Assembly (NCBI GenBank): GCA_964461205.1
Contig: CAYWUL010000001.1
Span: forward strand, 28,549-92,548
Origin: an uncultured archaeon
GTDB taxonomy: Archaea > Iainarchaeota > Iainarchaeia > Iainarchaeales > JAAZKV01
DNA: 64,000 bases
Direction of reading: 5' to 3'
This document shows, piece by piece, positions 17,327 to 49,044 of the stretch (its first letter is position 1; each line of letters starts with the position of its first letter). The position numbers and the translations under genes are program-made. The notes beneath the pieces were generated by a model. It was not told the origin of the DNA. It did not search any database and saw only the letters and a list, made by a program, of their open reading frames with translations.

Positions 17327-17354
17327 AACAAAAAACCCCTCTATTCTACCAATA

Positions 17355-20386: not shown

Positions 20387-20514
20387 ACTAATATTAGTAA
20401 CATTTATTTATATGTTTTATTTTAAGTGAAAAACAGCAATCTGTACCAAATCTATTATAAAGGGCTTTTTGTTTATTTTTTCTAAGTATTTTAACTAAAA
20501 TAGAAGGGAAATAA

Positions 20515-21201: not shown

Positions 21202-21224
21202 TATTGGCAGCATAAGGTGTTTTT

Positions 21225-22208: not shown

Positions 22209-22209
22209 G

Positions 22210-22914: not shown

Positions 22915-22936
22915 GGTCTTATTTAAAAAGACTTTC

Positions 22937-23863: not shown

Positions 23864-23975
23864 ATTGAATAATATTTTTCTCTTAGTTTTAAAGGTATTG
23901 GTGCATTTTACCAAGTAGTTTTATTCTACTGTTTGTTCCATAACACTTATTAATGCTTTAAACAATTTTTTTTAT

Positions 23976-24935: not shown

Positions 24936-24963
24936 TAGCCCAAAAAATATTCTTTTTTTACAT

Positions 24964-26133: not shown

Positions 26134-26232
26134 ATTAAACAGCTGGTTTTAAGCATATAAAAGCGTTTTGATTCAAATATAATCTTTTTTTCACAATAAG
26201 GCTTATTAATCTCTTTTTACTTCTCTTGTTAT

Positions 26233-28841: not shown

Positions 28842-30302
28842 TTATTTTTTTATCCTTGGTGCTAACCTACGTAAATCTTTTTTGGTTTTTACTTCAACAA
28901 ATCTTTTAACTCCCCAGATAAGATCATTTGGAGAACGCACTGTAGTCAAAAAATGAAGCATGTTTTTTGGCGAGGTAATACTTTTTTTCATCATTCCATC
29001 AATAACATCAACTGCTTCCATATATGCAATCTCCCGGTCTCTTGCAGGAAATTCTGGCGTTTCAAATACTGGTTTGTCTTTTCCGTAACTCATGAAGCTT
29101 CTGTAATCTACAACATCTTCATAGTCAACTAGTAATTTTCCATGTGCTTTAACATACTCCCACAATCGAGTGCTGGGAAAAGGAACTGCTTGATTTACTC
29201 CGGCAATATCTAAATTGAGGTTCTTCATGAAAGCTACGGTTTCTCTTGCCTTTTCGAGTGTTTCGTTTGGCAAGCCAATAATAAAATGGCCGCCAACGGC
29301 GGGAATTCCAACTTCTTTAGAAAGTTTCACTGCGTGTTTTATTTTTTCAATAGTTGTTGCTTTTCCTATTGCTGCTAATAACTCAGCATTTCCTGTTTCC
29401 ATTCCAAACCATAATTCACTACACCCAGCATCCCTCATTTTTTCTAACAATTCTCTTGAAACAGTATTTACATGTATTCCCGTAGCACAAGTCATGTTAA
29501 TGTTTAAATCTCTATTAATTATTTCGTCACAAATACCAATTGCTCTATCTTTTTGAATTGTAAAATTATCATCAGATATCCCAACTACTCTTTTAACCTT
29601 TTTTGCTGCATGAGGATATCTTTCAAATGCTTGTTCTAGTTCATCAGCAACATTTTCAGGTGAACGGGAACGCCAATTAGTATTAGTAACTGGCTTAGAA
29701 CAATAAACACAATTGTATGGGCATCCTCTGCTAGTCATAACATTAAATGGGGCATGATAACTATCAATGTCCAATAATTCTCTTGCTGGAAAAGGCAAAG
29801 AATCTAAATCTGATATGAGTGGGGCTGGAGGGGTCATTCGTGCTCGGCCATTACTATCTCGGTAAGCTATCCCTCTTATATTACTCAGATTTTTTTCATT
29901 AATCAAAGCATCTATTAAATCAGTAATTATTTCTTCTGCTTCTCCAATAGCAACAACATCAATATCTGGGACTTTTTCTATTATTTTTTCTCTGAAGATT
30001 GTTGCATGTGGGCCTCCAATAATTATTTTGTCACAATATTTACGTGCTTCTTTTATTGCTGATAGAGTATAATAAAATGATGGAGTTGTTGCTGTAAATG
30101 CAACAACCCTTGGATTTTTCTTAAGCTGGTCAAAAAGATATTTTTTTGAACGCATATATGGTGGGTCCGTCGCGTTAGCAAAAACGTCTGCGATCGCAAC
30201 AGAGAAGCCATTTTTTTTCAGTATTGCTGCCAGAGTAGCAATTCCAATTCTCATTTGCCCACTTCCATTTAATTCTACAAACAGAACATCCATAATAATC
30301 AA
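28842..30302 (-). CDS. B12-binding-domain radical SAM enzyme (class B-like), paralog A
   Basis: N-terminal Rossmann-like segment with IIGGPHATIF, then SRGCPYNCVYC (CxxxCxxC). Start may be MDVLFV (30290). Confidence 0.75.
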   Translation of the reverse strand: MIIMDVLFVELNGSGQMRIGIATLAAILKKNGFSVAIADVFANATDPPYMRSKKYLFDQLKKNPRVVAFTATTPSFYYTLSAIKEARKYCDKIIIGGPHATIFREKIIEKVPDIDVVAIGEAEEIITDLIDALINEKNLSNIRGIAYRDSNGRARMTPPAPLISDLDSLPFPARELLDIDSYHAPFNVMTSRGCPYNCVYCSKPVTNTNWRSRSPENVADELEQAFERYPHAAKKVKRVVGISDDNFTIQKDRAIGICDEIINRDLNINMTCATGIHVNTVSRELLEKMRDAGCSELWFGMETGNAELLAAIGKATTIEKIKHAVKLSKEVGIPAVGGHFIIGLPNETLEKARETVAFMKNLNLDIAGVNQAVPFPSTRLWEYVKAHGKLLVDYEDVVDYRSFMSYGKDKPVFETPEFPARDREIAYMEAVDVIDGMMKKSITSPKNMLHFLTTVRSPNDLIWGVKRFVEVKTKKDLRRLAPRIKK

Positions 30303-30377
30303 AGTACTCCAAAACTTTATAATGGCTCCAGTACAAAAGAAGTCTCCTTATTTGTATTGGTCCGGCCAATTATAACT

Positions 30378-30803
30378 TTAGCTTCCAAAGTCACTCAATG
30401 AATTTGTCTTCCATTCAATTGTGGTGTCTTTGCTGATAGTATATGAAGAGATTCCTGCTTGTGCAAAAGAGCCATCAACATACAAACCAAGGTAATAACC
30501 TTCAGGTGGCTGAACACCATCAATAGAATTGACCATCACCCCAAATTCAAATTCGTCATAATCAACCTCGAAATTATTTTTCATTACCTCAAGAGCGTTT
30601 GTTCCGCTTTCGACATCGATTGATTTTTGGACAATTATATTTCCATTTGCATCAGTATATGAAAAATCAATTGTTACCATCTCCGAAGAATTGCTTGCAG
30701 TATCTGTTTGGGTGCAACCAAGCAAAAATAATACTGCTAATAGGAAAAGCAAACTTGTAATTCCTATAACCGTTTTTCTAATGTTTTCTTTTTTTTCAAT
30801 CAT
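30378..30803 (-). CDS. secreted lipoprotein-like DUF4430 (transcobalamin-like C-terminal domain) protein
   Basis: Signal plus lipobox-like LFLLGC. Then GTNALEVMK...FGVMVNSIDGV...YYLGLYVDGSFAQAGISSYTISKDTTIEWK, matching the DUF4430 pattern. Confidence 0.6.
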   Translation of the reverse strand: MIEKKENIRKTVIGITSLLFLLAVLFLLGCTQTDTASNSSEMVTIDFSYTDANGNIIVQKSIDVESGTNALEVMKNNFEVDYDEFEFGVMVNSIDGVQPPEGYYLGLYVDGSFAQAGISSYTISKDTTIEWKTNSLSDFGS

Positions 30804-30826
30804 TTGTTTTCACCCCTTATAATAAA

Positions 30827-32239: not shown

Positions 32240-32293
32240 AAAATCATTTACCTTTTTGTTTTTTTAAAATTATTCAATTTTATATTATTTTTT

Positions 32294-33616
32294 TTAAAAC
32301 TTATTTTTTACTTCCTTAAATAATATTGGAATAAGGTGTCTAATCTCCTTATAAAAATATTTTAGGTCTCTTGGCATTGGTATTAAAGAGAGTTTTATTC
32401 CCCCGACTTTTCTGAGTAATAAGTATCCAGTAAAACCATTAATTGCTGACCAAATTATTTGGGCAATAATGAGTCCTTTTACTCCTAACCATGGGACAAA
32501 GATAAGCAAAACAATAATCTCGATGGTAAAAGTAATTATTGCTTGTAACAAATTGAATTGGACCTTATTAATGGACTTGAAAATAGTGTCAATTTTTCTA
32601 TATCCTTCAAAGATAAATAGCAATGCTAGTAATGGAATTAATTCTAGTGCAGCAGTATATTTTGGAAAAAAAATGCCGATTATTAGGGGGGCACAAATAA
32701 TTAGGGCTATAGACATAATTACTAGTAAAATTATTGCACCTTTAATACAAATTGAACTATAGTTTTCAATATTTTTTTTGTTATTAAAGTTTTTTGAGTT
32801 TAATGGAAATAATACATCTCCAATTGCTTCACTTGGTGCGTTGAGTGCTAGAGAAGTGACTTTTCTTGCAACATAGTATACTCCAAGTATTGCTGGCCCG
32901 ATGAACAAACCCATTATAATTACTTGAATCATTGATCCTCCTTCTTTTATGACCTCTACTATAACAGAAAATTTTCCGTAAGTGATTACTTCTTTTTTAT
33001 TTATTGGTTTGTTTTTGAAAGAAGTTTTTTTCAAATAAAAAATATAAATTAAAGCAGATCCAATTAAAGACAAATACTTAGAATAAAAGGCACCTTCAAT
33101 GCCATACCCCAAAATAACAACAAATAAAGCAATAAAAATTAAATTAATTAGATTTTCAAGCATTGATGCAACAAAGACTCGATTAAAATTTTCCATTCCT
33201 TTGTTGAGTGATGCAAAAATAGTGGTTAATGGGTTTAGGAACAATATTGCTCCAGCCATAATAATGATGCTAAGTGTTGTGCCCCCCACACTCGTAATTA
33301 TTATGTTATTAAATAACATTAATCCCAGAAATATTGCTCCCGCGATTAGAAATTCTGCAATAAATACTTTTTTGAAAAGACTTTTTGAACTCTTTTGGGC
33401 AGTAAAATTCGTTAGTAAGTTGTTAAGTGTTGTGCTTCCAAACAAATTTGCAAATCCTAAAGCAAATGCGATTATATAGTTAAACAAACCATACTCGGCA
33501 GAGCTTAGTGCAGCAGTTAAAAGAATTGTGTAAGTAAATGAAAAAAGAACAGGGAGTAATTTTTCTGCAAAAGAAAAAGAACTATTTTTAACAAACAAGT
33601 ATTTTGCGTTGCTCAT
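32294..33616 (-). CDS. MOP-superfamily oligosaccharide flippase (Wzx/RfbX-like)
   Basis: 440 aa, about 12-14 TM, N-terminal KNSSFSFAEKLLPVLFSFTYTILLT typical of polysaccharide biosynthesis flippases. Confidence 0.65.
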   Translation of the reverse strand: MSNAKYLFVKNSSFSFAEKLLPVLFSFTYTILLTAALSSAEYGLFNYIIAFALGFANLFGSTTLNNLLTNFTAQKSSKSLFKKVFIAEFLIAGAIFLGLMLFNNIIITSVGGTTLSIIIMAGAILFLNPLTTIFASLNKGMENFNRVFVASMLENLINLIFIALFVVILGYGIEGAFYSKYLSLIGSALIYIFYLKKTSFKNKPINKKEVITYGKFSVIVEVIKEGGSMIQVIIMGLFIGPAILGVYYVARKVTSLALNAPSEAIGDVLFPLNSKNFNNKKNIENYSSICIKGAIILLVIMSIALIICAPLIIGIFFPKYTAALELIPLLALLFIFEGYRKIDTIFKSINKVQFNLLQAIITFTIEIIVLLIFVPWLGVKGLIIAQIIWSAINGFTGYLLLRKVGGIKLSLIPMPRDLKYFYKEIRHLIPILFKEVKNKF

Positions 33617-33729
33617 ATTTTAAAAATCCAAGAACTGCTTTATATACGTATTAGTACAGTTATATTGTTCTTAAAGCAACCAAACATTGTACTAGTTAGT
33701 TTAAAATAAGAGTGTATTTTTGTTGATTT

Positions 33730-35448
33730 ATGCTAGAAAAAACTTTTTACTTTATAAGTATCTTCTTAGTATCGCTAATGATTCTTGGGATTTATCTAGG
33801 GTATTCTGGGCTTATTTCTTTTCAAGTAACTCTTATTACAATAATAATTTCTGCGGTTATTTCTTTATTCATTGTTGTAAAACAAAATAAAGAAGCGGAT
33901 AAAAATTTTAAGTCCAAAAAGAAAAAATTAACAGTACTTGTTTTTTTAATTTTCTTATTTTTTTTTGCTTTTCTTGTTTTTCCGGAAGGGGTTTTTCCAG
34001 TTACTTGTTCGGACATAATGAATCATTCTCTTGCAACCAGAATAATTGGGCAAACAGGATTTATTCCGAATTCTGAATCAGATGCTTTTTTTTCGGGAAT
34101 TCCATTAACTTATGTGCATGTATATCCTCAAGGATTTTATGCTATTTCAGCTCAGATTTATACTCTTTTTCCAAATGCATATTTGGTAAATTCAGTTCTT
34201 GCAATTATTTTAACTTTTTTCTCAGCAATTGGTATCTTTATTATTACTAAAAAAATTTCAAATGAAAACTCTGCGATTTTAGCAACACTAATATTTTTTT
34301 CTTCAATAACCACTTTGTGGATAATCGAGTCTGGTTTTATACCACAGATTCTTGGATCTTTTTTTCTTTTGGTAATACTTTTAGCTTACATACAAAAAAA
34401 CAAAGTATTATTTTTTATTTCATCTATTGGTTTAATCTCTTATCCTCCACTAATAGCCGTTTTATTTTTGTTCTTGATTATTGATTTTTTATTAAAATCT
34501 AATTTTTCTTTTAAAAAAATACAGAAAAACTTTTTTGAATGGATGAAATATTTTATTCTAGCAATTATATCTTTTTTTGTTGTGTTTCCAGAATTCTTTG
34601 GTTTACTAATACAATATACAACCGTTGAGAAATTTTGGAAAGGGGCCTTGTTAATAAGGGGCGGAATTTTCTCACCAAATCCGTTTGGTTTGTTAATTTT
34701 TGTCCCTGTTCTTCTTGTATTATATCTTTTTATTTTTAGGAAGAAAAAATTCTCTATTGGTCTTAGGCCTTGTTTTGCTATGTTGGTTGCTGGGTTACTA
34801 ATGAGCGGGGCGGTGGTATTTTATTTTATTATAAATTTATTACTTACAATAGTTGATGTAAAACAAATTCATTCATTGTACCAAGCAGTTAAATTTTTTT
34901 ATTTTGCGTTAATAATTGCAAGTATTTTTTCAGGAATCGGTTTTGAATTATTGTTTTCTAAATTTACAAAAGGAAAAATAAAATTTATCTTAATTGCAGT
35001 ACTATTATTTGGTGTTGTTTATTTTTTTGGTTACTCAACTGTCTTATTTGCAAAAGATTCTGAAGTAATTGGTTTTTATTCCACTTCAGAATTTGTTGAA
35101 TCTTTGCCAGAAGGATCAATAATTGGTGTGGATTCATGCGCACTAAAACTAGATTATGTTCCGAACCCTTTTATTTATAAATCGCTTTTTGATAATCCTG
35201 ATCCAAGTGGAGAAAATATTTGCAGGCAAACAGAAATAACCCGTGCTTTTCGGCCATCCTATGCAACACACGATTTTATTGATGGGCGGTTTAGGATTTT
35301 TGATTCTACTAGTAAAGAGTTAGTTTTAATTGGTAATGAAATAAATCCAACAATGAGCAATATTAATTATTTTTACACAACTTGTTTAAGCATAAATGCC
35401 CCTCTTATTTTTGAATCAGGAAAAACCAGGATTTATAAAATAAATTAA
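33730..35448 (+). CDS. large polytopic membrane protein with C-terminal soluble domain (possible Wzy-like polymerase or GT-C enzyme); function unknown
   Basis: 572 aa, at least 12 hydrophobic segments followed by about 130 soluble residues. Divergent from the Wzx gene. No diagnostic motif recognised. Confidence 0.3.
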   Translation: MLEKTFYFISIFLVSLMILGIYLGYSGLISFQVTLITIIISAVISLFIVVKQNKEADKNFKSKKKKLTVLVFLIFLFFFAFLVFPEGVFPVTCSDIMNHSLATRIIGQTGFIPNSESDAFFSGIPLTYVHVYPQGFYAISAQIYTLFPNAYLVNSVLAIILTFFSAIGIFIITKKISNENSAILATLIFFSSITTLWIIESGFIPQILGSFFLLVILLAYIQKNKVLFFISSIGLISYPPLIAVLFLFLIIDFLLKSNFSFKKIQKNFFEWMKYFILAIISFFVVFPEFFGLLIQYTTVEKFWKGALLIRGGIFSPNPFGLLIFVPVLLVLYLFIFRKKKFSIGLRPCFAMLVAGLLMSGAVVFYFIINLLLTIVDVKQIHSLYQAVKFFYFALIIASIFSGIGFELLFSKFTKGKIKFILIAVLLFGVVYFFGYSTVLFAKDSEVIGFYSTSEFVESLPEGSIIGVDSCALKLDYVPNPFIYKSLFDNPDPSGENICRQTEITRAFRPSYATHDFIDGRFRIFDSTSKELVLIGNEINPTMSNINYFYTTCLSINAPLIFESGKTRIYKIN

Positions 35449-35470
35449 TCAAAAGTTATTTGGTGTTTTC

Positions 35471-36871
35471 TTGAAGGTTGCTTTAGTTTATCCATTCTTA
35501 CTTTCAGGCCAATCAATTTCTGCTCCACTTGGACTTCTTTATATTGCTTCTGTTCTAAAAAAAGATCATGACATAAAAATAATTGATTCTACTTTTTCTA
35601 AATCAATCGAATTCATAAAAAAAGAATTAATTGATTTTACGCCGGAAGTAGTGGGTATATCAAGTTCTTCAGCAATGGCTGAGGGGGCATTTAAAACAGC
35701 AGAAATCGCAAAAAGAATTGGTTCAATGGTTGTTCTTGGAGGTGTTCATTCCACACTTTTTCGTGAAGAGTGTATAAAAAACAAAAATATTGATTTTGTT
35801 ATTCCTGAAGAAGGCGAAATTCCTTTCAAAGAATTAGTAGCAGCCTTTGAATCGGTGAAAAGTAATGGAAAAGAGTTGTCTCAAGTTGGGTTAGTTAAAG
35901 GGGTTTTATCAAAAAACCACGATTTTATTCCTGCTGAAAAAATAGAGGATTTGGATGTAATTCCCTTTCCTGCGTGGGAATTATTGCCTACTCGAGAAAA
36001 ATATCTGAATGCATCAGGGGGCAGACTTTCAATTATTGCTAGTAGAGGATGTATATTTCGTTGTAGCTATTGTCAACCCACACTAAAAAAGATATTTGGG
36101 GAAAAAGTACGAATGCGATCACCAAAAAATGTTGTGGATGAAATCGAAATGGATGTAAAAAAATTTGGTGCTAAATCAATTGCATTTCAAGATGATACAT
36201 TTACTTGGAATAAAGAATGGCTTTCTGAGGTTTGTGACTTAATGAAAAAAAAATTTAACGGAAAAATTCCTTTTAGAATAAATTCTCGTGTAAATACTAT
36301 TGATGAAGAAAAATTAATTAAACTCAAAAAAGCAGGTTGTTCACTTATTTCATTTGGTGTTGAATCGGGTTCGCAAAGAATTCTCGATGAAATACTTCAT
36401 AAAGGAATAAAAACTGAACAAGTAATAATGGCATTTAATTTGGCAGAAAAAGTTGGCATAAGGGCAACAGCGTATATTATGCTTGGCAATCCAACAGAAA
36501 CAAAAGAAGACATAGAAAAAACAATTTCTCTACTAGAAAAAATAAACCCCTTTAATATTTATTTGTCAGTCACAAATCCCCTTCCCCACACAGACTTATA
36601 TTCTATTTATGAAAAAATGGATATTCTTATTCCCGGTGCAAACAAGTATTATTATCGGAGTTTTGACTCAATGCCTTTGCGATTAAAACACCTAAAAGAA
36701 GAAGACATTAACAAAGCAAAGGAAAGAATAGAAAAAATTGCAAGACAAAAAATGATAAAACATTTAATTAAAGATTATGCTAGAGGGGTTTCACATTTAA
36801 AAATACTGTCAACTGTAAAACTGATGAGAGAAGACTTTGGGTCTGCGATAGCTTTGAAAAAAATATTGTGA
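35471..36871 (+). CDS. B12-binding-domain radical SAM enzyme, paralog C
   Basis: TTG start. VVLGGVHSTLF, then SRGCIFRCSYC. ISFGVESGS landmark. Confidence 0.7.
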   Translation: MKVALVYPFLLSGQSISAPLGLLYIASVLKKDHDIKIIDSTFSKSIEFIKKELIDFTPEVVGISSSSAMAEGAFKTAEIAKRIGSMVVLGGVHSTLFREECIKNKNIDFVIPEEGEIPFKELVAAFESVKSNGKELSQVGLVKGVLSKNHDFIPAEKIEDLDVIPFPAWELLPTREKYLNASGGRLSIIASRGCIFRCSYCQPTLKKIFGEKVRMRSPKNVVDEIEMDVKKFGAKSIAFQDDTFTWNKEWLSEVCDLMKKKFNGKIPFRINSRVNTIDEEKLIKLKKAGCSLISFGVESGSQRILDEILHKGIKTEQVIMAFNLAEKVGIRATAYIMLGNPTETKEDIEKTISLLEKINPFNIYLSVTNPLPHTDLYSIYEKMDILIPGANKYYYRSFDSMPLRLKHLKEEDINKAKERIEKIARQKMIKHLIKDYARGVSHLKILSTVKLMREDFGSAIALKKIL

Positions 36872-36876
36872 TAATT

Positions 36877-38001
36877 ATGAAAATTTGTTTGTTTGCAAGA
36901 AACCACCCAAAATATGGGGTTGGGGGGATAGGAGAATTTGTTTATGATTTATCTCAAAACCTTTCTGGTTTGGGTCATGAAGTGCATGTTATAGTTAGCA
37001 AGTACTCTGAAAACGCTTCAAATAAAATGCCTGTTGAATTAATGTGTGGAAAAGTAAAATATCACTTTATTGAGCATCCGAGATTCTCTTCTGGTTTGCT
37101 TTTTAATTTTTTTTACAATATTGCAGCATACAAAAAGGCACGTTCTCTCGGAAAAAAAATTCACTTCGATGTTTTTAATATTAATTCAACATTATATGGT
37201 GGGCTTTTTTTACTTTTATCAAGAGGAAATTTTAAAAAAGTTTTAACAATTCACACTTCTCTCAAAGAAGAAGCGCATTATGCAGACTCATTTATTTGGA
37301 AAATATATTTTTTTATTGCATCTTGTTTTGAAAAAATTTGTATTTCAAAATCTGATGGAGTTCTTTTTGTTAGCAAATTTTTGTCAAAAAAGACCTTTCC
37401 AAAAAAAGACTCTATGAAAAAGTCGGCAGTAATTTATCCTGGGGTAAATTCAAAAATTTTCTCAAAAAAATCAACACGTGAAAAAATACCCTTGTTTGTT
37501 TTTGTGGGGCGTTTAGTAAAAAGAAAAGGCATTATTTATCTTAAAGAATTCGCACAAAATCTTAAGCAAATTAATTCCGAAGCAAAAATAAGGGTTTTTG
37601 GACAAGGGCCAGCACAAAAAGAATTATCACTAATTAGCAACATTGAAATTGTTGGAAGGGTTCAAAGAAAAGATTTAGCTTTGCATTTTTCAAAAGCCAC
37701 AGCATTATTATTTTTTTCAATGGATGAAGGATTTGGATTAGTTATGCTGGAATCGATGCTTTGTGAAACACCTGTAATTGCTCTAAATACGGGTGCAGTG
37801 CCAGAAATCATTTCAAATAAACAAAATGGGATAATTCTTGGTTCTAATAATATGTGCCGTGCAGCTATTATTGCAACTGAGTTGTCACAGAACAAGAAAA
37901 TATTAAATTCTTTTGGAAAAAAAGCACGAGAGGAAATAGTGAAAAATTTTTCTTGGAAAGAATCAGCAAAAAAAACAATCGATTTTTATAAATCTCTTTA
38001 A
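36877..38001 (+). CDS. GT4 (GT-B) glycosyltransferase
   Basis: SMDEGFGLVMLESMLCETPVIA motif. ATG at 36877 preferred over GTG 36868, which overlaps the upstream stop. Confidence 0.8.
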   Translation: MKICLFARNHPKYGVGGIGEFVYDLSQNLSGLGHEVHVIVSKYSENASNKMPVELMCGKVKYHFIEHPRFSSGLLFNFFYNIAAYKKARSLGKKIHFDVFNINSTLYGGLFLLLSRGNFKKVLTIHTSLKEEAHYADSFIWKIYFFIASCFEKICISKSDGVLFVSKFLSKKTFPKKDSMKKSAVIYPGVNSKIFSKKSTREKIPLFVFVGRLVKRKGIIYLKEFAQNLKQINSEAKIRVFGQGPAQKELSLISNIEIVGRVQRKDLALHFSKATALLFFSMDEGFGLVMLESMLCETPVIALNTGAVPEIISNKQNGIILGSNNMCRAAIIATELSQNKKILNSFGKKAREEIVKNFSWKESAKKTIDFYKSL

Positions 38002-38051
38002 GTTTTAAATTTTAATTTTAAAAAAAACAATTGTTAAAACAATTTATTTGT

Positions 38052-38630: not shown

Positions 38631-38673
38631 TTATCTTTAGTGCACTTTTTATTAAAAGCCTATCATTTTAAAT

Positions 38674-39855: not shown

Positions 39856-39913
39856 GTGTCTACTAAAACAAGTTTATAAACACCCTTTTAAATAATTGTG
39901 TCAAATTCTATTT

Positions 39914-40909
39914 ATGCACTTGCGTAATTTATTGTTTGTTATTGGCATAGCAATTTTTTTACTTGTTCTTTTCTCTTTTAACATTGACTTTTCAGTAATG
40001 TTTAGAGTAAAGAACCCAATTTTTATAATTCTTGCTGCAGTTGTTTATTTAATTGGTATTTTTATCGCATCTTTAAGAGCAGGATTTTTTATTAAAATTA
40101 CAAACAAAAGAAACCTTGATTTTTCTTTAAAAAATACAAAAGACTTTTTTTCTGTGGAATTAATTAATAAACTAGCTTACTATATTTTGCCTGCGCGAAT
40201 TAATGTTCCAATAAAGGCATTGTTAATTAGCAAAGCATTTGGTGTATCAAAAGGTGACTCAATTGCAATAACTGCTCTTGAATATGCTATTGATTTGGGC
40301 ATAATGTTTGTGCTTGGATTTATTTTGTTCTCAATATTTTTCCAAAAATTATTTTATCAAATTACTTTGTTTAATCTTTTTATTACTCTGGTAGTTATTA
40401 TTTTATTAGCAATATTATTTTTTTTAGTTCCTTCTAGTTTTTTTGAAAGAATTGTTAAGTCGGTTTCAAAAATAAAAAACGCTTTTGTTAAAAAAATATT
40501 TTTTCTTATAACAAAAACAATTTTAAAAGTACGAACGGTTTGGCCGAGGTTATTGCTTGATTGGTCTCAGATACCAATACTTATTCTTTCTGTTGCCGGC
40601 ATAATAATTACAGCAATGGCTTCTGAATTAATATTTTTAGCATATGGTATTTATGTTCCTGTACTGTGGGTAATAGCTGTTGGTGCTGTGTCTGTTTTGG
40701 TTGGCGGAATAAGTCAAATTCCAGGCGGTATTGGATCAAGAGAGATAACAATAATTGCATTATTTGTATTCCTTGGTTTGCAAAAGGATGTTGTTCTCTC
40801 AGTGGCTGTTTTTTTAAGAATATTAAGTCTTTTACCAATAATTCTTGGGTACATTGCATTAGTTGGGTTTAGAAAAAAGTTTGGTTTAAATGTTTTTCGT
40901 GGACTTTAA
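39914..40909 (+). CDS. UPF0104 / LPG-synthase-TM-like 'flippase-like' membrane protein
   Basis: 8 or more TM segments. GGISQIPGGIGSREITIIALF matches the UPF0104 signature. ATG 39914 preferred over TTG 39896. Confidence 0.55.
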   Translation: MHLRNLLFVIGIAIFLLVLFSFNIDFSVMFRVKNPIFIILAAVVYLIGIFIASLRAGFFIKITNKRNLDFSLKNTKDFFSVELINKLAYYILPARINVPIKALLISKAFGVSKGDSIAITALEYAIDLGIMFVLGFILFSIFFQKLFYQITLFNLFITLVVIILLAILFFLVPSSFFERIVKSVSKIKNAFVKKIFFLITKTILKVRTVWPRLLLDWSQIPILILSVAGIIITAMASELIFLAYGIYVPVLWVIAVGAVSVLVGGISQIPGGIGSREITIIALFVFLGLQKDVVLSVAVFLRILSLLPIILGYIALVGFRKKFGLNVFRGL

Positions 40910-40974
40910 AATATGCTCTTGATTCTGATTGATTTTATTTTAACTATGGTGTTTTGTAATTTTGTTAACTTTTT

Positions 40975-42240
40975 TCAGTTAGAATATTTTCCACGCAACA
41001 CTGCTTTAAAAAATCTCCACATGTCTTTGAAGAAATTCAGTGATGATTTTCCTTCTCTTTCTTCTGCTTCTATTTTTATTTCTTTGTAAATAAATCCTTT
41101 GCTTATTGCTTTTGCAGTGAATTCTGCTTCAAAATCAAGCCCTTTTGCTTTAATATTCATTCCATTAATAAGATCTTTTTTGAATGCTCTTAAACCAGTT
41201 GTTACATCAGTAACTTTCTTTTTTAGAATTACGCTTGTAGCAAGAGCACCTAATTTGTTTGCCATTACTCTATGCCAAGGCATGTCCTCTGGCCACATTC
41301 CTCTAAACCTAGTTCCAACAACAAGATCTGCTCTTCTGATTTCGTCAGCTAAATCTGGAATTTTTTCTGGAGGATAAGTACAATCCGCATCAATTGTTAC
41401 AATAACCTTGTTTTTTGCTTTTCTAAATCCTTCTTTTAGTGCTCCTGCTTTTCCTTTATTTTTTTTGTATGAAATAACCCATATTTTTTCTTTTCTCGCA
41501 ACCTCTGCAGTCTTATCTCTACTACCATCATCTACAACAATTATTTCATCGCCTTTGTTGATTACTTTTTTGCAACGCCTAATAACTTCTTGAATGCCTT
41601 TTTCTTCATTATATGCAGGAATTATTATTGATTTTTGTATTTTTTTGTCTTTTGTTTTCATTATGTAAAAACTAGTCTCACTATTTATTGTTGTTCCATT
41701 TTTTAATCCGCGAAATATTTTTATTGCTGCAAGATTTTGTTCAACAAATTCTTTTGCACTTTTGTATCTTTCAAAATTTGTGTCATCTAAAATTACGATG
41801 CATTTTTCTTTTATGAATGGCATAATTGCTCTTGCAGCATCTTCTCTTAGCTTATAAGAATCAATTAAAACCAAATCTGCTTTTGGACCATATTTTTTTC
41901 CTATTTCAATAAATCTTTTATTTCCTTTAGAAAAAAGTAAATCAACATTTTTTAGTTCTAGTTTTTTTATCTTTTTTGCCCATTCTTTGTCTGTCTCAAC
42001 TGTGTAAACTTTTTTTACTCTTTTCGAGAAAAATTTAGTTGATGCTCCTGACCCAAATTCCAAAATTGTCATTTTTTTATTTAATAATTCTTCTAAAAAT
42101 GTTTCTGCTTGATAAGTCATAAAAGTATTTTCTGTTGATAAAATGTCTTTGCCCCAATTCTTGGCAAGCAAGGGTAAGTAGTAAATGTTTGATGGGTGTT
42201 CAAAAATGCTTTTTGTGAGTCTTGAAATTCCGCGAATCAT
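40975..42240 (-). CDS. fusion protein: N-terminal class I methyltransferase-like domain + C-terminal GT2 (Dpm1-like) glycosyltransferase
   Basis: N-terminal half has ILEFGSGASTKFF and LVLIDS. C-terminal half has IIIPAYNEE...VVDDGSRDKTAEVA...TIDADCTYPPE...GTRF. Confidence 0.7.
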   Translation of the reverse strand: MIRGISRLTKSIFEHPSNIYYLPLLAKNWGKDILSTENTFMTYQAETFLEELLNKKMTILEFGSGASTKFFSKRVKKVYTVETDKEWAKKIKKLELKNVDLLFSKGNKRFIEIGKKYGPKADLVLIDSYKLREDAARAIMPFIKEKCIVILDDTNFERYKSAKEFVEQNLAAIKIFRGLKNGTTINSETSFYIMKTKDKKIQKSIIIPAYNEEKGIQEVIRRCKKVINKGDEIIVVDDGSRDKTAEVARKEKIWVISYKKNKGKAGALKEGFRKAKNKVIVTIDADCTYPPEKIPDLADEIRRADLVVGTRFRGMWPEDMPWHRVMANKLGALATSVILKKKVTDVTTGLRAFKKDLINGMNIKAKGLDFEAEFTAKAISKGFIYKEIKIEAEEREGKSSLNFFKDMWRFFKAVLRGKYSN

Positions 42241-42253
42241 TGTAATCCCTGTA

Positions 42254-43411: not shown

Positions 43412-43441
43412 TGAATTTACCTTCTTTAAAAGTTTAATTTT

Positions 43442-43981
43442 TTATGCTCTTGCGACGTTAATAAAAAATGCTTTTACTTTTGAGTCTTCAAGATTTTTAT
43501 TATCAAGTATGAATTTTTCAACAAGTGGAGTGAACACTAATACAAAACCACTTACTGTTGCAAGGTGTAATATTGTGAAAGGAATTTGTCCTATCAATGC
43601 AATTTCAAAGCTGTATCCAAATAGTAACGGCATCATCATTACTCCTGTAACAAAATCAAATATTAGTACCCCCACAACGCCCGAAGCCAGATAATGTTTC
43701 ATTTTTATCTTTTTAAATTTTTTATAAGTAAAAAAGAAAAATGCTCCAAGAAAACCATATGTTAGGGCAGTAACAATTGTCCAAATGCCAACAAAACCAG
43801 TTATTAAATCAAAAGAGACCATTGTAATAATTGGGAAAAAAACAGCCACAGAGAGTTTTTCTTGTTTTGAAAAGGGTAGCATAAAACTCATTATGGGGTC
43901 ATTATTTGGAATAAATCTAAAAATACGAATGAGATTTGACACTAGTATTGTGAAAAATATTTTTGTAACTCCAATTCCCAT
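43442..43981 (-). CDS. small 5-6 TM membrane protein, ECF-S-component-sized (DUF6580-like putative transporter)
   Basis: 179 aa. RFIPNNDPIMSFMLPF near the N-terminus and LIFDFVTG...IPFTILHL resemble my recollection of the DUF6580 pattern (R-l-i-P-h-p-P-N-f-t-P-i). Low certainty. Confidence 0.35.
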   Translation of the reverse strand: MGIGVTKIFFTILVSNLIRIFRFIPNNDPIMSFMLPFSKQEKLSVAVFFPIITMVSFDLITGFVGIWTIVTALTYGFLGAFFFFTYKKFKKIKMKHYLASGVVGVLIFDFVTGVMMMPLLFGYSFEIALIGQIPFTILHLATVSGFVLVFTPLVEKFILDNKNLEDSKVKAFFINVARA

Positions 43982-44045
43982 GAATTAAAAAGTACTTATT
44001 CCTTTATTTAAAGTTAACTGGTTCAAATATTTTTTCTCTTAGTGC

Positions 44046-45134
44046 TTAGAAGTTAGTTGACTTTTTCCAGACTTTTTCCACCTTAATTGAGTCCATAAAT
44101 TTCTGTTTTTGTTTAATATCAAAGGTTCCTTTCACATAACAAGGCCATTTTTTGTTTTTTACTTGGAAAGCAAATCTTTTTTTTCCTTCTAAAAAAATTC
44201 TTTTTGAATCAGTTGGCCCAAATATTCCAATAGTTGGGATTTTTACAGCAATTGCAATATGCATTAATCCAGTATCATTTCCAATGTATCCATTTGATTT
44301 TGAAAATAAGTATGTAACTTCTTTCAAATTTAACCTTCCTGTGAAATCAAAAACCCCCCTTTTGTTATGTATAAGTTGAATGGTTTTTTTACTTCCTTCT
44401 TCTCCTTTTGCACCACAAAACACTATTTTTTGTCCATTCTCAATGATTTTATCTGAAAGCAAAGCATAATTCTTTTCTCCCCAACCCTTTGCTTCCGCTC
44501 CATCTCTAGTATTTGGATTGATTATTATAAAGTCCTTTAAGCCTTCTTTTTTAAGCATTTTTTCTACTTTTGCACACTTTTCAACCTCTATTACATACTC
44601 TTTTTCCTTTATTTTTTTGTTTCCCAATGCCTTTGCAATCAATAAATAATTGTCAATAATATTGTAGTTTTCTTTTGCCCCTTGCCATTTTCCAATCTCA
44701 AAATTTGCTTCTAACTTGCTTCCTTTCAAAAAACCAATTACATATTTTGGTTTTGATTTCCACGCAATAATTGTACTCTCTAAAGAATCATTCATTGAAA
44801 CAACAAGATCAAACCCTGTTTCAACTTTTCCTTTATCAACAATAACTTTGTCAATTGTTGGATTTAATTCAGCGATTTGTTTTGTTGCTCCTTTGCAAAG
44901 CAAAGTTGTTGTTGCTCTGGGAAATTGTTTGGCAATTTCTTTTATTGCCGGGGTTGACATTAAATAATCTCCTATGCCATATAATTGAATAAACAAAATT
45001 GCTCCTACTTCTTTTTTTTCGAAAACAATTTTATTTCTGAACAACCCTTTTACCGCGACCCGTCCTAATTGTCTAGTGACCTTTGTTGAATAATACTTTG
45101 CAATTCCTTGCTTTGATAATTCTTTATCAACCAT
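44046..45134 (-). CDS. GT9 family glycosyltransferase (heptosyltransferase-like)
   Basis: YIGNDTGLMHIAIAVKIPTIGIFGPT is the classical GT9 C-terminal motif. N-terminal LGDYLMSTPAI. Confidence 0.7.
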   Translation of the reverse strand: MVDKELSKQGIAKYYSTKVTRQLGRVAVKGLFRNKIVFEKKEVGAILFIQLYGIGDYLMSTPAIKEIAKQFPRATTTLLCKGATKQIAELNPTIDKVIVDKGKVETGFDLVVSMNDSLESTIIAWKSKPKYVIGFLKGSKLEANFEIGKWQGAKENYNIIDNYLLIAKALGNKKIKEKEYVIEVEKCAKVEKMLKKEGLKDFIIINPNTRDGAEAKGWGEKNYALLSDKIIENGQKIVFCGAKGEEGSKKTIQLIHNKRGVFDFTGRLNLKEVTYLFSKSNGYIGNDTGLMHIAIAVKIPTIGIFGPTDSKRIFLEGKKRFAFQVKNKKWPCYVKGTFDIKQKQKFMDSIKVEKVWKKSTNF

Positions 45135-46089
45135 TTATTTTCCCCCAAATTAATCCAATTCCAAAAACAACACTTCTTAAAAACAAAATTATTGGACTTG
45201 CTAATGCAACTGCTTTATCTTTTTTCCAAGAAAGAGAAAACAATTTTGCTCCAAGCAACAAATGTATTATTAAGAAAAATAAAGCAACAAACACAAGACT
45301 AATTGCTAACAAGGAAAAAATTAATGCGAGGATAACTAAATAAAAACAAATGATTTGTAATTTCAATGTTTGTGGAGTATATGAATCCTTCAACATCTTT
45401 TTCTTGTGCTTTGAATACATTCTTGGTCTATAAAACGCACGAAAGAATTTTATTTTCAAATATTTTGACAATTTTTTAGGATGAAAATGATAAACAATTG
45501 CTCTTGGGTTAAAAACAATTCTTCCTCCTTTTTCATGCAATTTATAACTCAATTCAGGGTCTTCTCCGCTAGCAATCGGAAAACTCTCATCAAAACCGCC
45601 AACAGAAAAATATTCTTTTTTATTGTAAGCCGCACTATAACTACCAACCCAATCAATGCTCTTCGATTTTTTCATTTTTTCATATCTCTCTTCAATTTCT
45701 ATTTGAGAAAACCTGGCCGTTAGTTCTTTTTGTTTAGTTTTATATGCTCCTTGAACAGCAACAACTTTCTTATCATCAAAAGGTTTTATCATTTCCTCTA
45801 ACCAATTTTTTTCAGCAACACAATCCGAATCAATAAATAAAATTATTTCTCCCTTGGCTTTTTTTGCCCCAATATTCCTTGCTTTTGCTGGCCCTTTGTT
45901 TTTTTGATAAAAATAGCCAACTTTTTTTGATTTAATTTTTTGAATTTCTTTTTTTGTGTTATCTATGCTTCCATCATCAACACAAATAATCTCAAATTGT
46001 TTCTTTGTTTTTTGTTCTAATAAAGAATTAAGAGTATTTGAAATAGTTTTTTCGCAATTGTAACACGGAATTATTATTGAATAAAACAT
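45127..46089 (-). CDS. GT2 glycosyltransferase with C-terminal TM helices
   Basis: IIIPCYNCEKT...CVDDGSIDNT...IDSDCV. Start codon shares a base with the upstream radical-SAM stop (TAATG). Confidence 0.8.
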   Translation of the reverse strand: MFYSIIIPCYNCEKTISNTLNSLLEQKTKKQFEIICVDDGSIDNTKKEIQKIKSKKVGYFYQKNKGPAKARNIGAKKAKGEIILFIDSDCVAEKNWLEEMIKPFDDKKVVAVQGAYKTKQKELTARFSQIEIEERYEKMKKSKSIDWVGSYSAAYNKKEYFSVGGFDESFPIASGEDPELSYKLHEKGGRIVFNPRAIVYHFHPKKLSKYLKIKFFRAFYRPRMYSKHKKKMLKDSYTPQTLKLQIICFYLVILALIFSLLAISLVFVALFFLIIHLLLGAKLFSLSWKKDKAVALASPIILFLRSVVFGIGLIWGKING

Positions 46090-47558
46090 TATTTTCTCAC
46101 TAAATATTTTAATAAAGTAAAACCGCCCTTTGCTAGCCGTGGTATTTCTCGAGGATTAGTAACTGCTTGTGTTACTTTTGATAAAACATACCTTGGCCTA
46201 ACATAAAAAGCTCTTCTTGACTCATCTGTTAATTCGTTTAATTCTTTTGAACTTAACCCTGGCCTAGACAACAAAGTTCTGTGTGTTCCATCTTTGTTCA
46301 ACCAATCACTCCACTTTTTTGCTTTCAAATAACCTTTTTTCTTTGCCCAATTATAAGTCTCTGTTCCCGGATAAACCATTACTGGAAAAAATTGTGCTGT
46401 GTCCGGATTTAATTCTCTCGCAAACTTTGCTGTTTCTCTTATTGTTTCTTTTGTCTCTCCTTGATTTCCAAACATAAAACAACCATGGACCAGTATTCTT
46501 GCTTTTTTTGAATCCTTCATAAACTGCCTTATGCCATTTGGGGTAGTCCCCTTATGAATATTATTTAATATTTCTTGATTTGCACTTTCAATTCCAACGC
46601 ACATTAATCTACAATGAGCTTTTTTCATCCACTTTAGTACTTCCAAAGAAACATCAGCTCTTGCATTACAACTCCAAGTTAACTTTATTTTACGTTTTAT
46701 TATTTCTTTGCAAAGCTCAATGGTTCTTTCTTTGTCTTGTGTTAAAGTATCATCTTCAACCATAACTTCTTTTACTTCTGGCAAATTTTTTTCTATCCAT
46801 GCAAACTCATCAACAACACTCTTCACACTTCTCTTTCTATACAATCTTCCTGAAAATGTTTGTGGCCATTTACAAAAAGCACATCTATTTGGGCACCCTC
46901 TTCCAGTAAGAATAGTAACTTCTGGATATTGAACAGATGGATAAAAATAATTTTCAATTCCAAGGTATTCTTTGTAAATCTCTGAAACAAAGGGCAACCA
47001 ATCTAATTCTTTTTCGCTTGGCGGATCTCTTTCAAGTGTTTTAATAATTTTTTTTCCTTTTTTGTAAGCAATTCCTTTTACATTACTCAAACTTTTTTTT
47101 TCTTCCAACACCTTAACAATTTCTGGCAAAATAAAATCATATTCTCTTATTGCAACAAGGTCTGCCTTAGTTTCTTTCAAACTTCTTTCTGGCAACACAC
47201 TAACATGGTCTCCTACTAAGACAAGCGTTGTGTTTGGAAATTCTTTTTTTATTCTTGCAACAATTTTTTTGTCATTATCAAATGAAGGAGTTACCGTATC
47301 AATAACAATCATTTCTGGTTCAAATTCTTTTATTCTTTTCATTGTCTGATTTAAAGTAATGTTTTCTCCAGAAGCATCCAATAACAAAACATCATTCTTA
47401 CCTTTTTTCAATGCACCTGTTGCATAAGCCAACCAAATAGGATAATACACACAGCCACCCTTACTTACTCCTGGACTTCTAGATGTCCTAGAAAATTTTT
47501 TCATAAAAGGAGGATTCAACATCAATACTTTCATCTTTCTCACATCTTGTTCATTCAC
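46089..47558 (-). CDS. B12-binding-domain radical SAM enzyme, paralog D (HpnJ-like flavour)
   Basis: LVLVGDHVSVLP, then EVTILTGRGCPNRCAFCKWPQT. CVGIESA landmark. Confidence 0.7.
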   Translation of the reverse strand: MNEQDVRKMKVLMLNPPFMKKFSRTSRSPGVSKGGCVYYPIWLAYATGALKKGKNDVLLLDASGENITLNQTMKRIKEFEPEMIVIDTVTPSFDNDKKIVARIKKEFPNTTLVLVGDHVSVLPERSLKETKADLVAIREYDFILPEIVKVLEEKKSLSNVKGIAYKKGKKIIKTLERDPPSEKELDWLPFVSEIYKEYLGIENYFYPSVQYPEVTILTGRGCPNRCAFCKWPQTFSGRLYRKRSVKSVVDEFAWIEKNLPEVKEVMVEDDTLTQDKERTIELCKEIIKRKIKLTWSCNARADVSLEVLKWMKKAHCRLMCVGIESANQEILNNIHKGTTPNGIRQFMKDSKKARILVHGCFMFGNQGETKETIRETAKFARELNPDTAQFFPVMVYPGTETYNWAKKKGYLKAKKWSDWLNKDGTHRTLLSRPGLSSKELNELTDESRRAFYVRPRYVLSKVTQAVTNPREIPRLAKGGFTLLKYLVRK

Positions 47559-48531: not shown

Positions 48532-48532
48532 T

Positions 48533-49024: not shown

Positions 49025-49044
49025 GTTATCACAACCAAGACTAG

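Follow-up and report, generated by a model that had tools for sequence, protein, structure and literature searches.

Four divergent B12-type radical SAM proteins within a glycan-assembly island of an uncultured iainarchaeote

The DNA examined here is a 64,000-nucleotide stretch of an archaeal contig (assembly GCA_964461205.1, contig CAYWUL010000001.1, positions 28,549 to 92,548), referred to below as the window. Our subject is four of its genes, named R1 to R4 in order of position, which encode radical S-adenosylmethionine (SAM) proteins with a B12-binding domain. All four lie in an island of glycan-assembly genes that spans about 14.5 kb to 52.8 kb of the window, as delimited by Pfam and NCBIfam matches. 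We put the probability at roughly two in three that R1-R4 are class-B-type radical SAM enzymes that tailor sugars during lipid-linked glycan assembly, an estimate that applies to this general statement of radical sugar tailoring and not to any single chemistry. One of the four, R4, forms with the adjoining gene for a membrane-anchored family 2 glycosyltransferase (GT2p) a conserved two-gene module, which in some organisms is a single fused protein.

Four radical SAM genes in a glycan-assembly island

In each of the four proteins the B12-binding domain (PF02310) matches the N-terminal ~120 residues and the radical SAM domain (PF04055) matches further downstream, with E-values of 1e-11 to 1e-27 that exclude chance. 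The PF02310 scores of 45-61 bits exceed the gathering threshold of 32.1 bits, the PF04055 scores exceed theirs of 29.5 bits, and a CxxxCxxC motif falls within the PF04055 domain of all four, so that both features of class B membership are present throughout. The cluster motifs read SRGCPYNCVYC, SRGCPGACLFC, SRGCIFRCSYC and GRGCPNRCAFC, and the translations also contain IIGGPHATIF, FGVFGPHPTSLP, VVLGGVHSTLF and LVLVGDHVSVLP. This agrees with the original prediction, made from the sequence without database searches, which had described four genes of one B12-type/CxxxCxxC architecture: its coordinates and strands are exact, every peptide it quoted is present in the translations, and the hidden Markov model (HMM) check that it proposed for the B12 domain gave a match above threshold in each case. 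It had also described the four as strongly diverged and as wedged between glycosyltransferase (GT) and deacetylase-like genes with abutting or overlapping junctions, and both descriptions hold. Pairwise identities among R1-R4 are 25-31% by BLASTP, so they are old paralogues or separate acquisitions and not recent duplicates. The GT2p start overlaps the R4 stop (TAATG; ..AAATAATGTTT..), R3 and the following GT4 gene overlap by 4 nucleotides, R1 is spaced 13 nucleotides from a deacetylase-like DUF2334 gene, and this gene in turn abuts a GT4 gene (junction TAGATG). Homologue alignments place the likely true starts a few codons inside the listed open reading frames, at Met9 in R4 and Met4 in R1.

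Three gene strings carry these enzymes. R4 lies in the string AglB-AglH-Alg14-Alg13-GT2a-R4-GT2p-GT9-DUF6580-GT4-GT2 (52796 to 40975, minus strand), R1 and R2 share Wzx-R2-DUF4430-R1-DUF2334-GT4 (33616 to 26852, minus strand), and R3 stands between a 572-residue membrane protein and a GT4 (33730 to 38001, plus strand). The GT content of the island as a whole is six GT2, five GT4 and one GT9, plus a GT2 that resembles dolichyl-phosphate-hexose synthases. Its core consists of AglB, an AglH-type N-acetylglucosamine-1-phosphate (GlcNAc-1-P) transferase and Alg14/Alg13-like genes, and its membrane set of a PF03706 flippase-like protein, GtrA, a Wzx flippase, a PMT_2-type GT-C and an MBOAT protein. 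Further genes encode five class I methyltransferases, a nucleotidyltransferase of the NTP-transferase family, a 4,6-dehydratase-like protein, a DegT aminotransferase and a FemAB-like protein. By Pfam, both STT3/AglB and the initiating polyprenyl-phosphate GlcNAc-1-P transferase that an AglB-dependent N-glycosylation locus requires are encoded here. The island resembles the Agl pathways of Haloferax, Methanococcus and Sulfolobus in its AglB/STT3, AglH-type and Alg13/14-like genes, its GT2 and GT4 enzymes, its Wzx-type flippase and its class I SAM methyltransferases, and differs from them in the four radical SAM enzymes interleaved with its GTs. We know of no characterised archaeal Agl pathway that contains a radical SAM enzyme.

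The archaeal origin of the window is confirmed by genes for the TATA-binding protein, STT3/AglB, ribosomal proteins L1 and L10P, FtsZ and 5S ribosomal RNA (rRNA); its G+C content is about 30%. R4 homologues up to 82% identical carry the names 'Candidatus Diapherotrites / Iainarchaeum archaeon', which points to a host among the Iainarchaeota of the DPANN archaea. The 5S rRNA gene lies between the glycan island and the TATA-binding protein gene, and neither 16S nor 23S rRNA was found within the 64-kb window. About 10 kb to the left of the island are two possible dolichol-carrier synthesis genes, which encode a cis-prenyltransferase and a geranylgeranyl-reductase-like flavoprotein. The island is flanked by two large proteins of 859 and 700 residues with fn3 and Big_7 Ig-like domains; both are candidates for surface glycoproteins that may accept the glycan. 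Coordinates of all these features are collected in Table 1.

Table 1. Genes and other features of the glycan island and its surroundings, in window coordinates
Feature	Position	Strand	Matches and remarks
R1, B12-binding radical SAM, 486 aa	28842..30302	-	PF02310 60 bits, PF04055 84 bits
R2, B12-binding radical SAM, 470 aa	30827..32239	-	PF02310 45 bits, PF04055 84.5 bits
R3, B12-binding radical SAM, 466 aa	35471..36871	+	PF02310 61 bits, PF04055 94.5 bits
R4, HpnJ-like B12-binding radical SAM, 489 aa	46089..47558	-	PF02310 48.7 bits, PF04055 66 bits
GT2p, GT2 partner of R4 (GT2/GT21-type)	45127..46089	-	PF00535, PF13506, PF13632; start overlaps R4 stop
GT2a, upstream of R4	47647..48552	-	PF00535
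GT9 (heptosyltransferase-family)	44046..45134	-	PF01075 119 bits; overlaps GT2p end
Small protein with five predicted transmembrane helices, ends R4-GT2-GT9 string	43442..43981	-	PF20221 (DUF6580) 20 bits, below gathering threshold
DUF4430 (transcobalamin beta-domain-like) putative lipoprotein, 141 aa, between R2 and R1	30378..30803	-	PF14478 48.5 bits
DUF2334, deacetylase-like, immediately downstream of R1	28019..28828	-	PF10096 67.7 bits
GT4 abutting DUF2334, end of R2/R1 string	26852..28018	-	PF00534, PF13439
Wzx-type flippase, heads R2/R1 string	32294..33616	-	PF01943, PF13440; at least 9 predicted transmembrane helices
572-aa polytopic membrane protein, first of R3 string	33730..35448	+	at least 12 hydrophobic segments
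GT4 overlapping R3 stop	36868..38001	+	PF00534, PF13439
PF03706 flippase-like membrane protein	39896..40909	+	PF03706 80 bits; TIGR00374 67 bits, above cut-off 43.2
Dolichyl-phosphate-hexose-synthase-like GT2 (AglJ/AglD-like)	40975..42240	-	NF041391 119 bits, TIGR04182 114 bits, both below cut-off
Alg13-like and Alg14-like genes	48533..49503	-	PF04101; PF08660 and PF04101 on identical contig L001
AglH-type polyprenyl-phosphate GlcNAc-1-phosphate transferase	49601..50629	-	PF00953 115 bits
AglB/STT3 oligosaccharyltransferase, first gene of R4 string	50700..52796	-	PF02516 70 bits
Left island part: GT2, methyltransferases, GtrA, MBOAT, PMT_2-type GT-C, NTP-transferase, 4,6-dehydratase-like; GT2, FemAB-like, DegT aminotransferase, MetW-like methyltransferase	14468..26844	.	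Pfam and NCBIfam matches
5S rRNA gene	53560-53676	-	64.9 bits
cis-Prenyltransferase	4036-4731	+	UPPS/DHDDS family
Geranylgeranyl-reductase-like flavoprotein	6578-7720	-	
859-aa protein, fn3 and Big_7 Ig-like domains	7814-10393	-	
700-aa protein, fn3 and Big_7 Ig-like domains	57124-59226	+	

R4 with its glycosyltransferase partner, and the contexts of R1, R2 and R3

R4 belongs to a large family, in which orthologues of at least 50% identity fall into more than 120 clusters at 90% identity. A metagenome scan gave 515 R4 relatives, of which 80 loci were kept; exclusion of a contig identical to the window left 79. The context statistics for these loci are phmmer best matches to the window's own proteins, taken from overlap-pruned gene maps. 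In 50 of the 79 loci a GT2p orthologue is found no more than 2.5 kb from R4, and in 37 of the 50 it follows R4 directly on the same strand; a single methyltransferase gene stands between the two in 7, and the remaining arrangements are divergent (4) or convergent (2). Where at least 2.5 kb is available on both sides of R4, the partner is present in 20 of 28 loci. GT2p has two predicted C-terminal transmembrane helices (residues 257-275 and 296-314). In the window and in loci of three independent genomes (L004, L005 and L007) the R4 orthologue is followed immediately by a GT2 with GT21/PF13632 signatures, these partners being mutually 46-53% identical. The association extends to gene fusions, revealed when the 50%-identity representatives of the family were searched exhaustively: P0376 is an R4-like protein fused to a GT2p orthologue (37% identity over 327 residues), P0398 combines a GT4 with an R4-like protein, and in P0362, P0402 and P0416 the R4-like protein is joined to a class I methyltransferase. 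Both the proximity counts and the R4-GT2 fusion bear out the expectation that R4 orthologues co-localise with GT genes in other genomes.

The wider surroundings of R4 are those of glycan assembly. AglB, AglH, Alg13 or Alg14 is encoded upstream of R4 in 14 of the 32 loci with at least 5 kb of upstream sequence. The order AglB-AglH-Alg14-Alg13-GT2a-R4-GT2p(-GT9) recurs in L033, L038, L036, L041 and L022, and the shorter order GT2a-R4-GT2p in L032, L033, L036, L038, L041, L044, L050, L052, L057, L067 and L068. In many relatives (L004, L005, L022, L025, L039 and L040), an RmlA-like nucleotidyltransferase, a 4,6-dehydratase-like gene and a methyltransferase stand just before R4. On a bacterial contig of 2.68 Mb the order is Wzx-GT2-GT4-GT4-R4like-GT2p-Bac_transf, and on another bacterial contig it is R4like-GT2p-Bac_transf-phosphodiesterase-Wzx.

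Downstream of GT2p, the GT9 gene occupies the equivalent position in L033, L038 and L009, and its product scores 80-92 bits, below cut-off, against the heptosyltransferase I/II HMMs. In the iainarchaeote locus L007, a heptose-7-phosphate kinase of the RfaE-domain-I type (357 bits, NCBIfam cut-off 345 bits) adjoins a GT9 gene (19864-20823; 20840 onward). Together, the GT9 in the R4 operon and this kinase offer hints of heptose-type sugars in DPANN glycans. The small DUF6580-like protein that ends the R4-GT2-GT9 string has a homologue directly upstream of the R1 orthologue in L009 (7368-7991). It was considered as the S-component of a B12 transporter of the energy-coupling factor (ECF) type, similar to CbrT, and had no PDB sequence match and no NCBIfam match.

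Two further observations concern the R4 family. The closest bacterial R4 relative found in the plasmid collection lies on plasmid 1 of Lawsonia intracellularis, an obligate intracellular pig pathogen (L014; NC_008012.1, 27 kb), where it stands beside GT2s, a second radical SAM gene and five class I methyltransferases; the plasmid also encodes a GDP-heptose pathway with GmhA-like and HddA-like proteins and an HddC-GmhB fusion. In addition, the R4-family proteins P0365, P0373 and P0382 carry LAGLIDADG-type inteins, which in P0365 and P0382 are inserted directly after the CxxxCxxC cluster motif.

R1, R2 and R3 are found in similar company, as had also been expected: every context of an R1, R2 or R3 homologue that we examined is a GT/methyltransferase/flippase locus. 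Full-length R1 homologues with 38% identity or higher group into about 25 clusters. R1 orthologues (40-68% identity) lie in glycan loci in all five contexts examined outside the window, and a gene of deacetylase type (DUF2334, Polysacc_deac_1 or PIG-L) is near the R1 family in four of six contexts (the window, L009, L010 and L100). The DUF2334 protein of the window shows a weak match to a GlcNAc-phosphatidylglycerol deacetylase. Conservation of R1 and R2 is confined to close relatives; in L009, an R1 orthologue (66%) adjoins an R2 orthologue (59%). A search of genome contigs with R2 returned a single match, a spurious Helicobacter fragment. R3 homologues are scattered among Omnitrophota, Aenigmarchaeota, Nanoarchaeota, Patescibacteria and Diapherotrites, again in loci of GT, methyltransferase and flippase genes. 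The 572-residue membrane protein encoded before R3 has no Pfam or NCBIfam match even at E=5. Family-less polytopic proteins of about 500-570 residues recur in other loci, often beside a PF03706 gene (L004 14875-16467, L005 15886-17373 and L007 1413-3137); that such proteins act as Wzy-like polymerases or as novel GT-C enzymes is only a guess.

A comparable set of enzymes is found in a second phylum. The aenigmarchaeote contig JAFGAZ010000020.1 (L101; GCA_016933455.1) encodes five B12-binding radical SAM proteins that are mutually 25-31% identical, together with one SPASM radical SAM protein. These genes are interspersed with methyltransferases and five GT2s in a stretch of no more than 15 kb that directly adjoins STT3/AglB. 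This indicates that sets of several B12-type radical SAM paralogues recur in AglB-linked islands of DPANN archaea and that the window is no one-off.

Family placement and the cobalamin question

None of R1, R2, R3 or R4 reaches the cut-off of a curated NCBIfam family. R4 comes nearest, with 416.3 bits against the HpnJ model TIGR03471 (cut-off 577.6), in an alignment that pairs residues 9-487 with positions 1-468 of the 472-position model; R1, R3 and R2 score 183.5, 139 and 121 bits, respectively. HpnJ is also the best NCBIfam match of R1, at 183 bits and far under the cut-off, and the best matches of R2 and R3 are the 'ladderane' lipid family TIGR04072 (147 bits, cut-off 360) and BchE (162 bits, cut-off 481). 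Across R1-R4, the AprD4 family HMM (NF033070, cut-off 500) gives 70-94 bits, the BchE model TIGR02026 (cut-off 481) gives 100-175 bits, the PhpK and Sden_1168 models give 80-130 bits, and the MiaB, RimO and HemN-type models remain below 50 bits. Many homologues of R1, R3 and R4 carry automated names, among them 'YgiQ', 'RimO' and, in JGI annotations, 'anaerobic magnesium-protoporphyrin IX monomethyl ester cyclase'; given the BchE and MiaB scores, we rejected the names BchE, YgiQ, MiaB and RimO as family-level misannotations. The family comparison covered HpnJ, BchE, MiaB, RimO, HemN-like, ladderane, AprD4, PhpK and Sden_1168 models. Within this scope, none of the four enzymes is confidently placed in a housekeeping or lipid-only family.

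The relation of R4 to HpnJ is one of kinship at a distance. Full-length identity is 35% to the annotated HpnJ proteins of Mycetohabitans, Paraburkholderia and Burkholderia, and the Lawsonia plasmid protein is closer, at 44%. An HMM of the R4 family scores its orthologues at 810-890 bits, the Lawsonia protein at 658, HpnJ at 400-428 and R1-R3 at 139-204. In a neighbour-joining distance tree, which carries no support values, R4 and its Iainarchaeota orthologues form one clade that the Lawsonia group adjoins, HpnJ (Mycetohabitans, Methylobacterium) stands separately, and R1-R3 fall outside. R4 and HpnJ have in common an N-terminal extension that is missing from R1 and R3, as well as many invariant residues. 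By these sequence comparisons the R4 family is a sister of HpnJ and a clade of its own.

The neighbourhoods of R4 and HpnJ are also comparable. In the HpnJ/HpnI/HpnK system for bacteriohopanetetrol cyclitol ether, HpnJ is likewise encoded beside a GT2, and a PF03706 membrane protein occurs in both settings: it is encoded directly 3' of hpnI-hpnJ-hpnK on plasmid pBRH01 of Mycetohabitans rhizoxinica (L015 8273-9334), and the family recurs in the archaeal islands (the window at 39896-40909, L004, L005, L007 and L099). HpnJ is considered a class-B enzyme that does not methylate its substrate but contracts the ring of a lipid-linked hexosamine (PMC9204698, PMC13459092). The R4 locus differs in that it has no HpnK, shc or other hpn gene, and its context is AglB- or Wzx-dependent glycan assembly. 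Direct orthology of GT2p with HpnI, or of window proteins with HpnK or the hpn PF03706 protein, was considered and rejected, as BLASTP gave no matches.

Structure prediction gives a consistent picture of the fold. An AlphaFold2 model of R4 built on 48 homologues (predicted local distance difference test score, pLDDT, 91.6) is predicted to have the class-B architecture of a Rossmann domain, a partial TIM barrel and C-terminal helices. This agrees with the expected fold, though the top Foldseek match of the model is AprD4 (template modelling score 0.74-0.80, identity ~19%), followed by TsrM, MgmA, OxsB, CysS and TokK, all with probability 1.0 and scores of 0.62-0.70. PDB sequence searches with R1-R4 returned remote matches only (AprD4, MgmA 9ccb, OxsB, TokK and CysS). 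AprD4 (6fd2) is the top match of R2, R3 and R4 and covers only the radical SAM barrel, and the N-terminal domains of R1-R4 align with the cobalamin domains of OxsB, TokK and MgmA.

Cobalamin is probably the second cofactor of R1-R4, and it would probably be scavenged. A structural review of class-B enzymes assigns binding of the cobalamin tail to two motifs, Gly-Gly on beta4 and Gly-Glu where alpha5 begins (PMC9204698). Both are complete in R1 (IIIGGPH and IGEAEE) and in R3 (VVLGGVH and EEGE). Between R2 and R1 lies the gene of the DUF4430 protein, which has an N-terminal signal or transmembrane segment and a lipobox-like LLGC sequence; proteins of the transcobalamin family have DUF4430 as their C-terminal domain (PMC4350170). 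Of the top 19 Foldseek matches to a model of this protein, all but one are beta-domains of transcobalamin, intrinsic factor or haptocorrin, with E-values of at least 5e-3; the single-sequence AlphaFold2 model is of low confidence (pLDDT 65.7) and serves only as support for the Pfam match. This suggests that the lipoprotein may bind and capture cobalamin at the cell surface. The presence of cob genes has been reported for some Diapherotrites (PMC8407392).

Alternative explanations and the proposed sugar chemistry

Several observations count against the reading of R1-R4 as cobalamin-type enzymes of sugar tailoring, or narrow it. Eight of the 28 fully flanked loci have no partner GT2 near R4, and the R4-GT2p module is not specific to archaea, being found in bacterial polysaccharide loci as well. 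By HMM and tree, R4 is outside the annotated HpnJ clade and under the HpnJ equivalog cut-off, and the two groups differ at positions invariant within each (R4 clade/HpnJ: H118/K, C316/L and C360/T). GT2p is not an HpnI orthologue (26 bits by HMM, no BLASTP match), no HpnK is encoded beside R4, and the function of HpnJ itself was assigned by knockout only (PMC13459092, PMC9092360). R3 has no homologue above 45% identity apart from itself, and the DUF4430 gene was found neither near R4 orthologues in the 79 other loci nor in other related loci. With R3 lacking a close orthologue and the DUF4430 gene missing elsewhere, the four-gene set is not one conserved pathway. The cobalamin-tail motifs are partial in R2, which has a single Gly (GVFGPH) and keeps the Gly-Glu (IGEPE), and in R4, which has a single Gly (LVLVGDH) and Arg-Glu instead of Gly-Glu (AIRE), with Glu139 invariant. 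The best structural match of R4 is AprD4.

These points divide what stands of the original prediction from what does not. All four proteins carry the B12-type domain, none is confidently placed in a housekeeping or lipid-only family among the models compared, and their homologues elsewhere keep the company of glycosylation genes. Its cobalamin-dependent layout agrees with the domain matches in all four and the complete motifs of R1 and R3, with cobalamin use something that we infer, R2 and R4 having partial motifs and the nearest structure to R4 being AprD4. Its four-enzyme toolkit is real in that four enzymes lie inside the island, and fails as a single conserved unit, since R4 alone is widely conserved.

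The same AprD4 likeness opens the strongest of the rival explanations, in which the enzymes use no cobalamin, keep a vestigial Rossmann domain as in AprD4, and supply the glycan with deoxy or keto sugars as plain radical SAM dehydratases, epimerases or oxidases. AprD4, the radical SAM 1,2-diol dehydratase of apramycin biosynthesis, acts on a sugar and is not known to bind cobalamin. Its top rank among PDB sequence matches of R2, R3 and R4 and structural matches of R4, the missing glycines of R2 and R4 with the Arg-Glu of R4, and the RmlA/RmlB-like 6-deoxyhexose cassette upstream of many R4 orthologues would all suit such deoxysugar chemistry. We nevertheless judge it unlikely, because the AprD4 family HMM gives just 70-94 bits against a cut-off of 500, and the AprD4 sequence alignment is limited to the barrel, whereas the N-terminal domains of R1-R4 align with the cobalamin domains of OxsB, TokK and MgmA and exceed the PF02310 threshold in every case. 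Moreover, R1 and R3 have complete GG/GE motifs, and the transcobalamin-like gene lies inside the R2/R1 string.

It is improbable that the R4-GT2 pair, perhaps with R1, the deacetylase and GT4, modifies a membrane-lipid head group into an ether-linked cyclitol lipid like bacteriohopanetetrol cyclitol ether or the archaeal calditol lipids. HpnJ is the nearest characterised relative of R4, GT2p matches models of the GT21/PF13632 type and has two C-terminal transmembrane helices, and a PF03706 flippase-like gene accompanies both hpnIJK and the archaeal islands. In some loci, the phmmer map also showed few or no other glycan genes around R4-GT2, but two of these sparse-looking loci (L073 and L077) proved to be polysaccharide loci once annotated. 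R4 orthologues stand repeatedly inside the AglB-AglH-Alg14-Alg13 string, and the bacterial relatives lie beside Bac_transf and Wzx, which are typical of glycan assembly on polyprenyl phosphate. R4-GT2 is also accompanied by RmlA/RmlB-like genes and further GTs, and no lipid-synthesis genes are adjacent.

Action on the glycan carrier, a possibility raised in the original prediction, for example methylation of the dolichol or polyprenol chain in the way that class-B enzymes modify hopanoids and archaeal tetraethers, would fit the cis-prenyltransferase and geranylgeranyl-reductase-like genes in the same window and the lipid-associated TIGR04072 as best curated match of R2 (147 bits). We regard this as very improbable, since all lipid-family model scores are far below cut-off, the gene fusions involve glycosyltransferases and small-molecule methyltransferases and not prenyl enzymes, and paralogue number and divergence follow the variable GT content, as in the five radical SAM genes among five GT2s of L101, which fits glycan diversity and not one common carrier. 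That R1-R4 are housekeeping radical SAM enzymes (BchE, YgiQ or MiaB-like) placed in the island by chance is effectively refuted: apart from the cyclase and YgiQ names given to homologues in JGI annotations, it is countered by the low HMM scores (BchE 100-175 bits against 481; MiaB, RimO and HemN-type below 50), by GT synteny conserved across phyla and gene fusions, and by the absence, to our knowledge, of a chlorophyll pathway from archaea of this kind.

We therefore return to sugar tailoring, which would take place during the cytoplasmic phase of dolichol-linked glycan assembly, with each R enzyme paired with its own glycosyltransferase or glycosyltransferases. Radical SAM enzymes require SAM and a cytoplasmic reductant, for which reason the radical step would have to precede flipping and occur in the cytoplasm. 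In the proposed scheme, AglH and Alg13/14 would start the glycan and a GT2 would add a sugar, after which a 5'-deoxyadenosyl radical in R4 would take a hydrogen from an unactivated sugar carbon and the sugar would be remodelled. GT2p, GT9 and the GT4s would then extend the chain, Wzx would flip it and AglB would transfer it to protein. Alternatively, R4 could act on a nucleotide sugar, the product of the RmlA/RmlB-like cassette found ahead of R4 in many relatives. R1, with its DUF2334 and GT4 neighbours, may repeat a triad of glycosylation, deacetylation and radical step, and R2 and R3 may have accessory tailoring roles in the part of the island that is variable and Wzx-dependent.

For the reaction of R4, our single best guess, a tentative one, is a skeletal rearrangement of the HpnJ type, in which ring contraction would yield a carbocyclic, ether-linked unit. 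It is favoured by the kinship with HpnJ and by the logic of a GT (plus a deacetylase) acting with a radical SAM enzyme that HpnIJK, PtmJGC and Cds have in common (PMC9092360, PMC13459092). The calditol synthase Cds (Saci_1489) of Sulfolobus, an archaeal radical SAM enzyme, has been proposed to contract a lipid-linked hexose to an ether-linked cyclopentitol after glycosylation (PMC13459092, PMC9092360), and, likened by description, it would share with R4 the order of glycosyltransferase first and radical rearrangement second; it differs in belonging to the tetraether membrane lipids of thermoacidophiles and not to an AglB-linked island. For pactamycin, the glycosyltransferase, deacetylase and radical SAM enzyme PtmJ, PtmG and PtmC are proposed to convert GlcNAc to an aminocyclopentitol (PMC9092360). 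The R1 string, with R1, DUF2334 and a GT4, has the same three enzyme types by description, but its deacetylase and GT families differ from those of PtmJGC, and a deacetylase is near the R1 family in only four of six contexts.

C-methylation of the MoeK5/GenK type is nearly as likely, and equally tentative, as a reaction of R4. MoeK5 (moenomycin), GenK (gentamicin) and Fom3 (fosfomycin) are C-methyltransferases that, likened by description, have the same domain architecture as R1-R4; they belong to antibiotic pathways, whereas R1-R4 belong to a surface-glycan and N-glycosylation locus. The substrate of MoeK5 is a lipid-linked sugar and that of Fom3 is nucleotide-activated, which parallels the two candidate substrate classes for R1-R4, lipid-linked and nucleotide-linked sugars. 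Most characterised class-B enzymes are methylases. For this reason, and because a published sequence-similarity network places Fom3, MoeK5 and HpnJ together (PMC9204698), we rank C-methylation about level with ring contraction. Dehydration or epimerisation would take the remaining share, dehydration being kept in view by the likeness of R4 to AprD4. It is a more doubtful proposition, and one we hold as speculation, that the N-glycans or surface polysaccharides of Iainarchaeota, other DPANN archaea and some bacteria contain carbocyclic (cyclitol, ether-linked) or C-branched/chain-extended sugars made by GT-coupled, HpnJ-like cobalamin enzymes on dolichol-linked intermediates.

The pathways in which class-B radical SAM enzymes are known are those of antibiotics, cofactors and membrane lipids. 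Our literature searches found no paper that ties radical SAM enzymes to archaeal N-glycosylation, to DPANN glycan loci or to polysaccharide loci generally, in keeping with the earlier view that the pathway is undescribed. The superfamily and the nearest relative, HpnJ, are known; what appears to be new is the redeployment of an HpnJ-like/GT2 module, together with accessory paralogues, in lipid-linked glycan assembly. An HpnJ-like enzyme lies, coupled to a GT2, inside the AglB-AglH-Alg13/14 operon of many Iainarchaeota, and the module recurs in bacterial Wzx-dependent loci. This pairing of R4 with GT2p predicts unusual sugar chemistry in archaeal surface glycans and offers a concrete, clonable system of two to five genes in which to look for new reactions on lipid-linked glycans, whether C-methylation or ring contraction. 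The same system could permit study in vitro of the HpnJ/Cds-type reaction, which has not yet been demonstrated in vitro. If the glycans are indeed carbocyclic or C-branched, their linkages would resist glycosidases and acid, and they would represent a new class of protein-glycan chemistry and a first biochemical handle on HpnJ/Cds-type ring contraction. More broadly, cobalamin supply would be implied to shape the cell surface of these tiny, host-dependent archaea.

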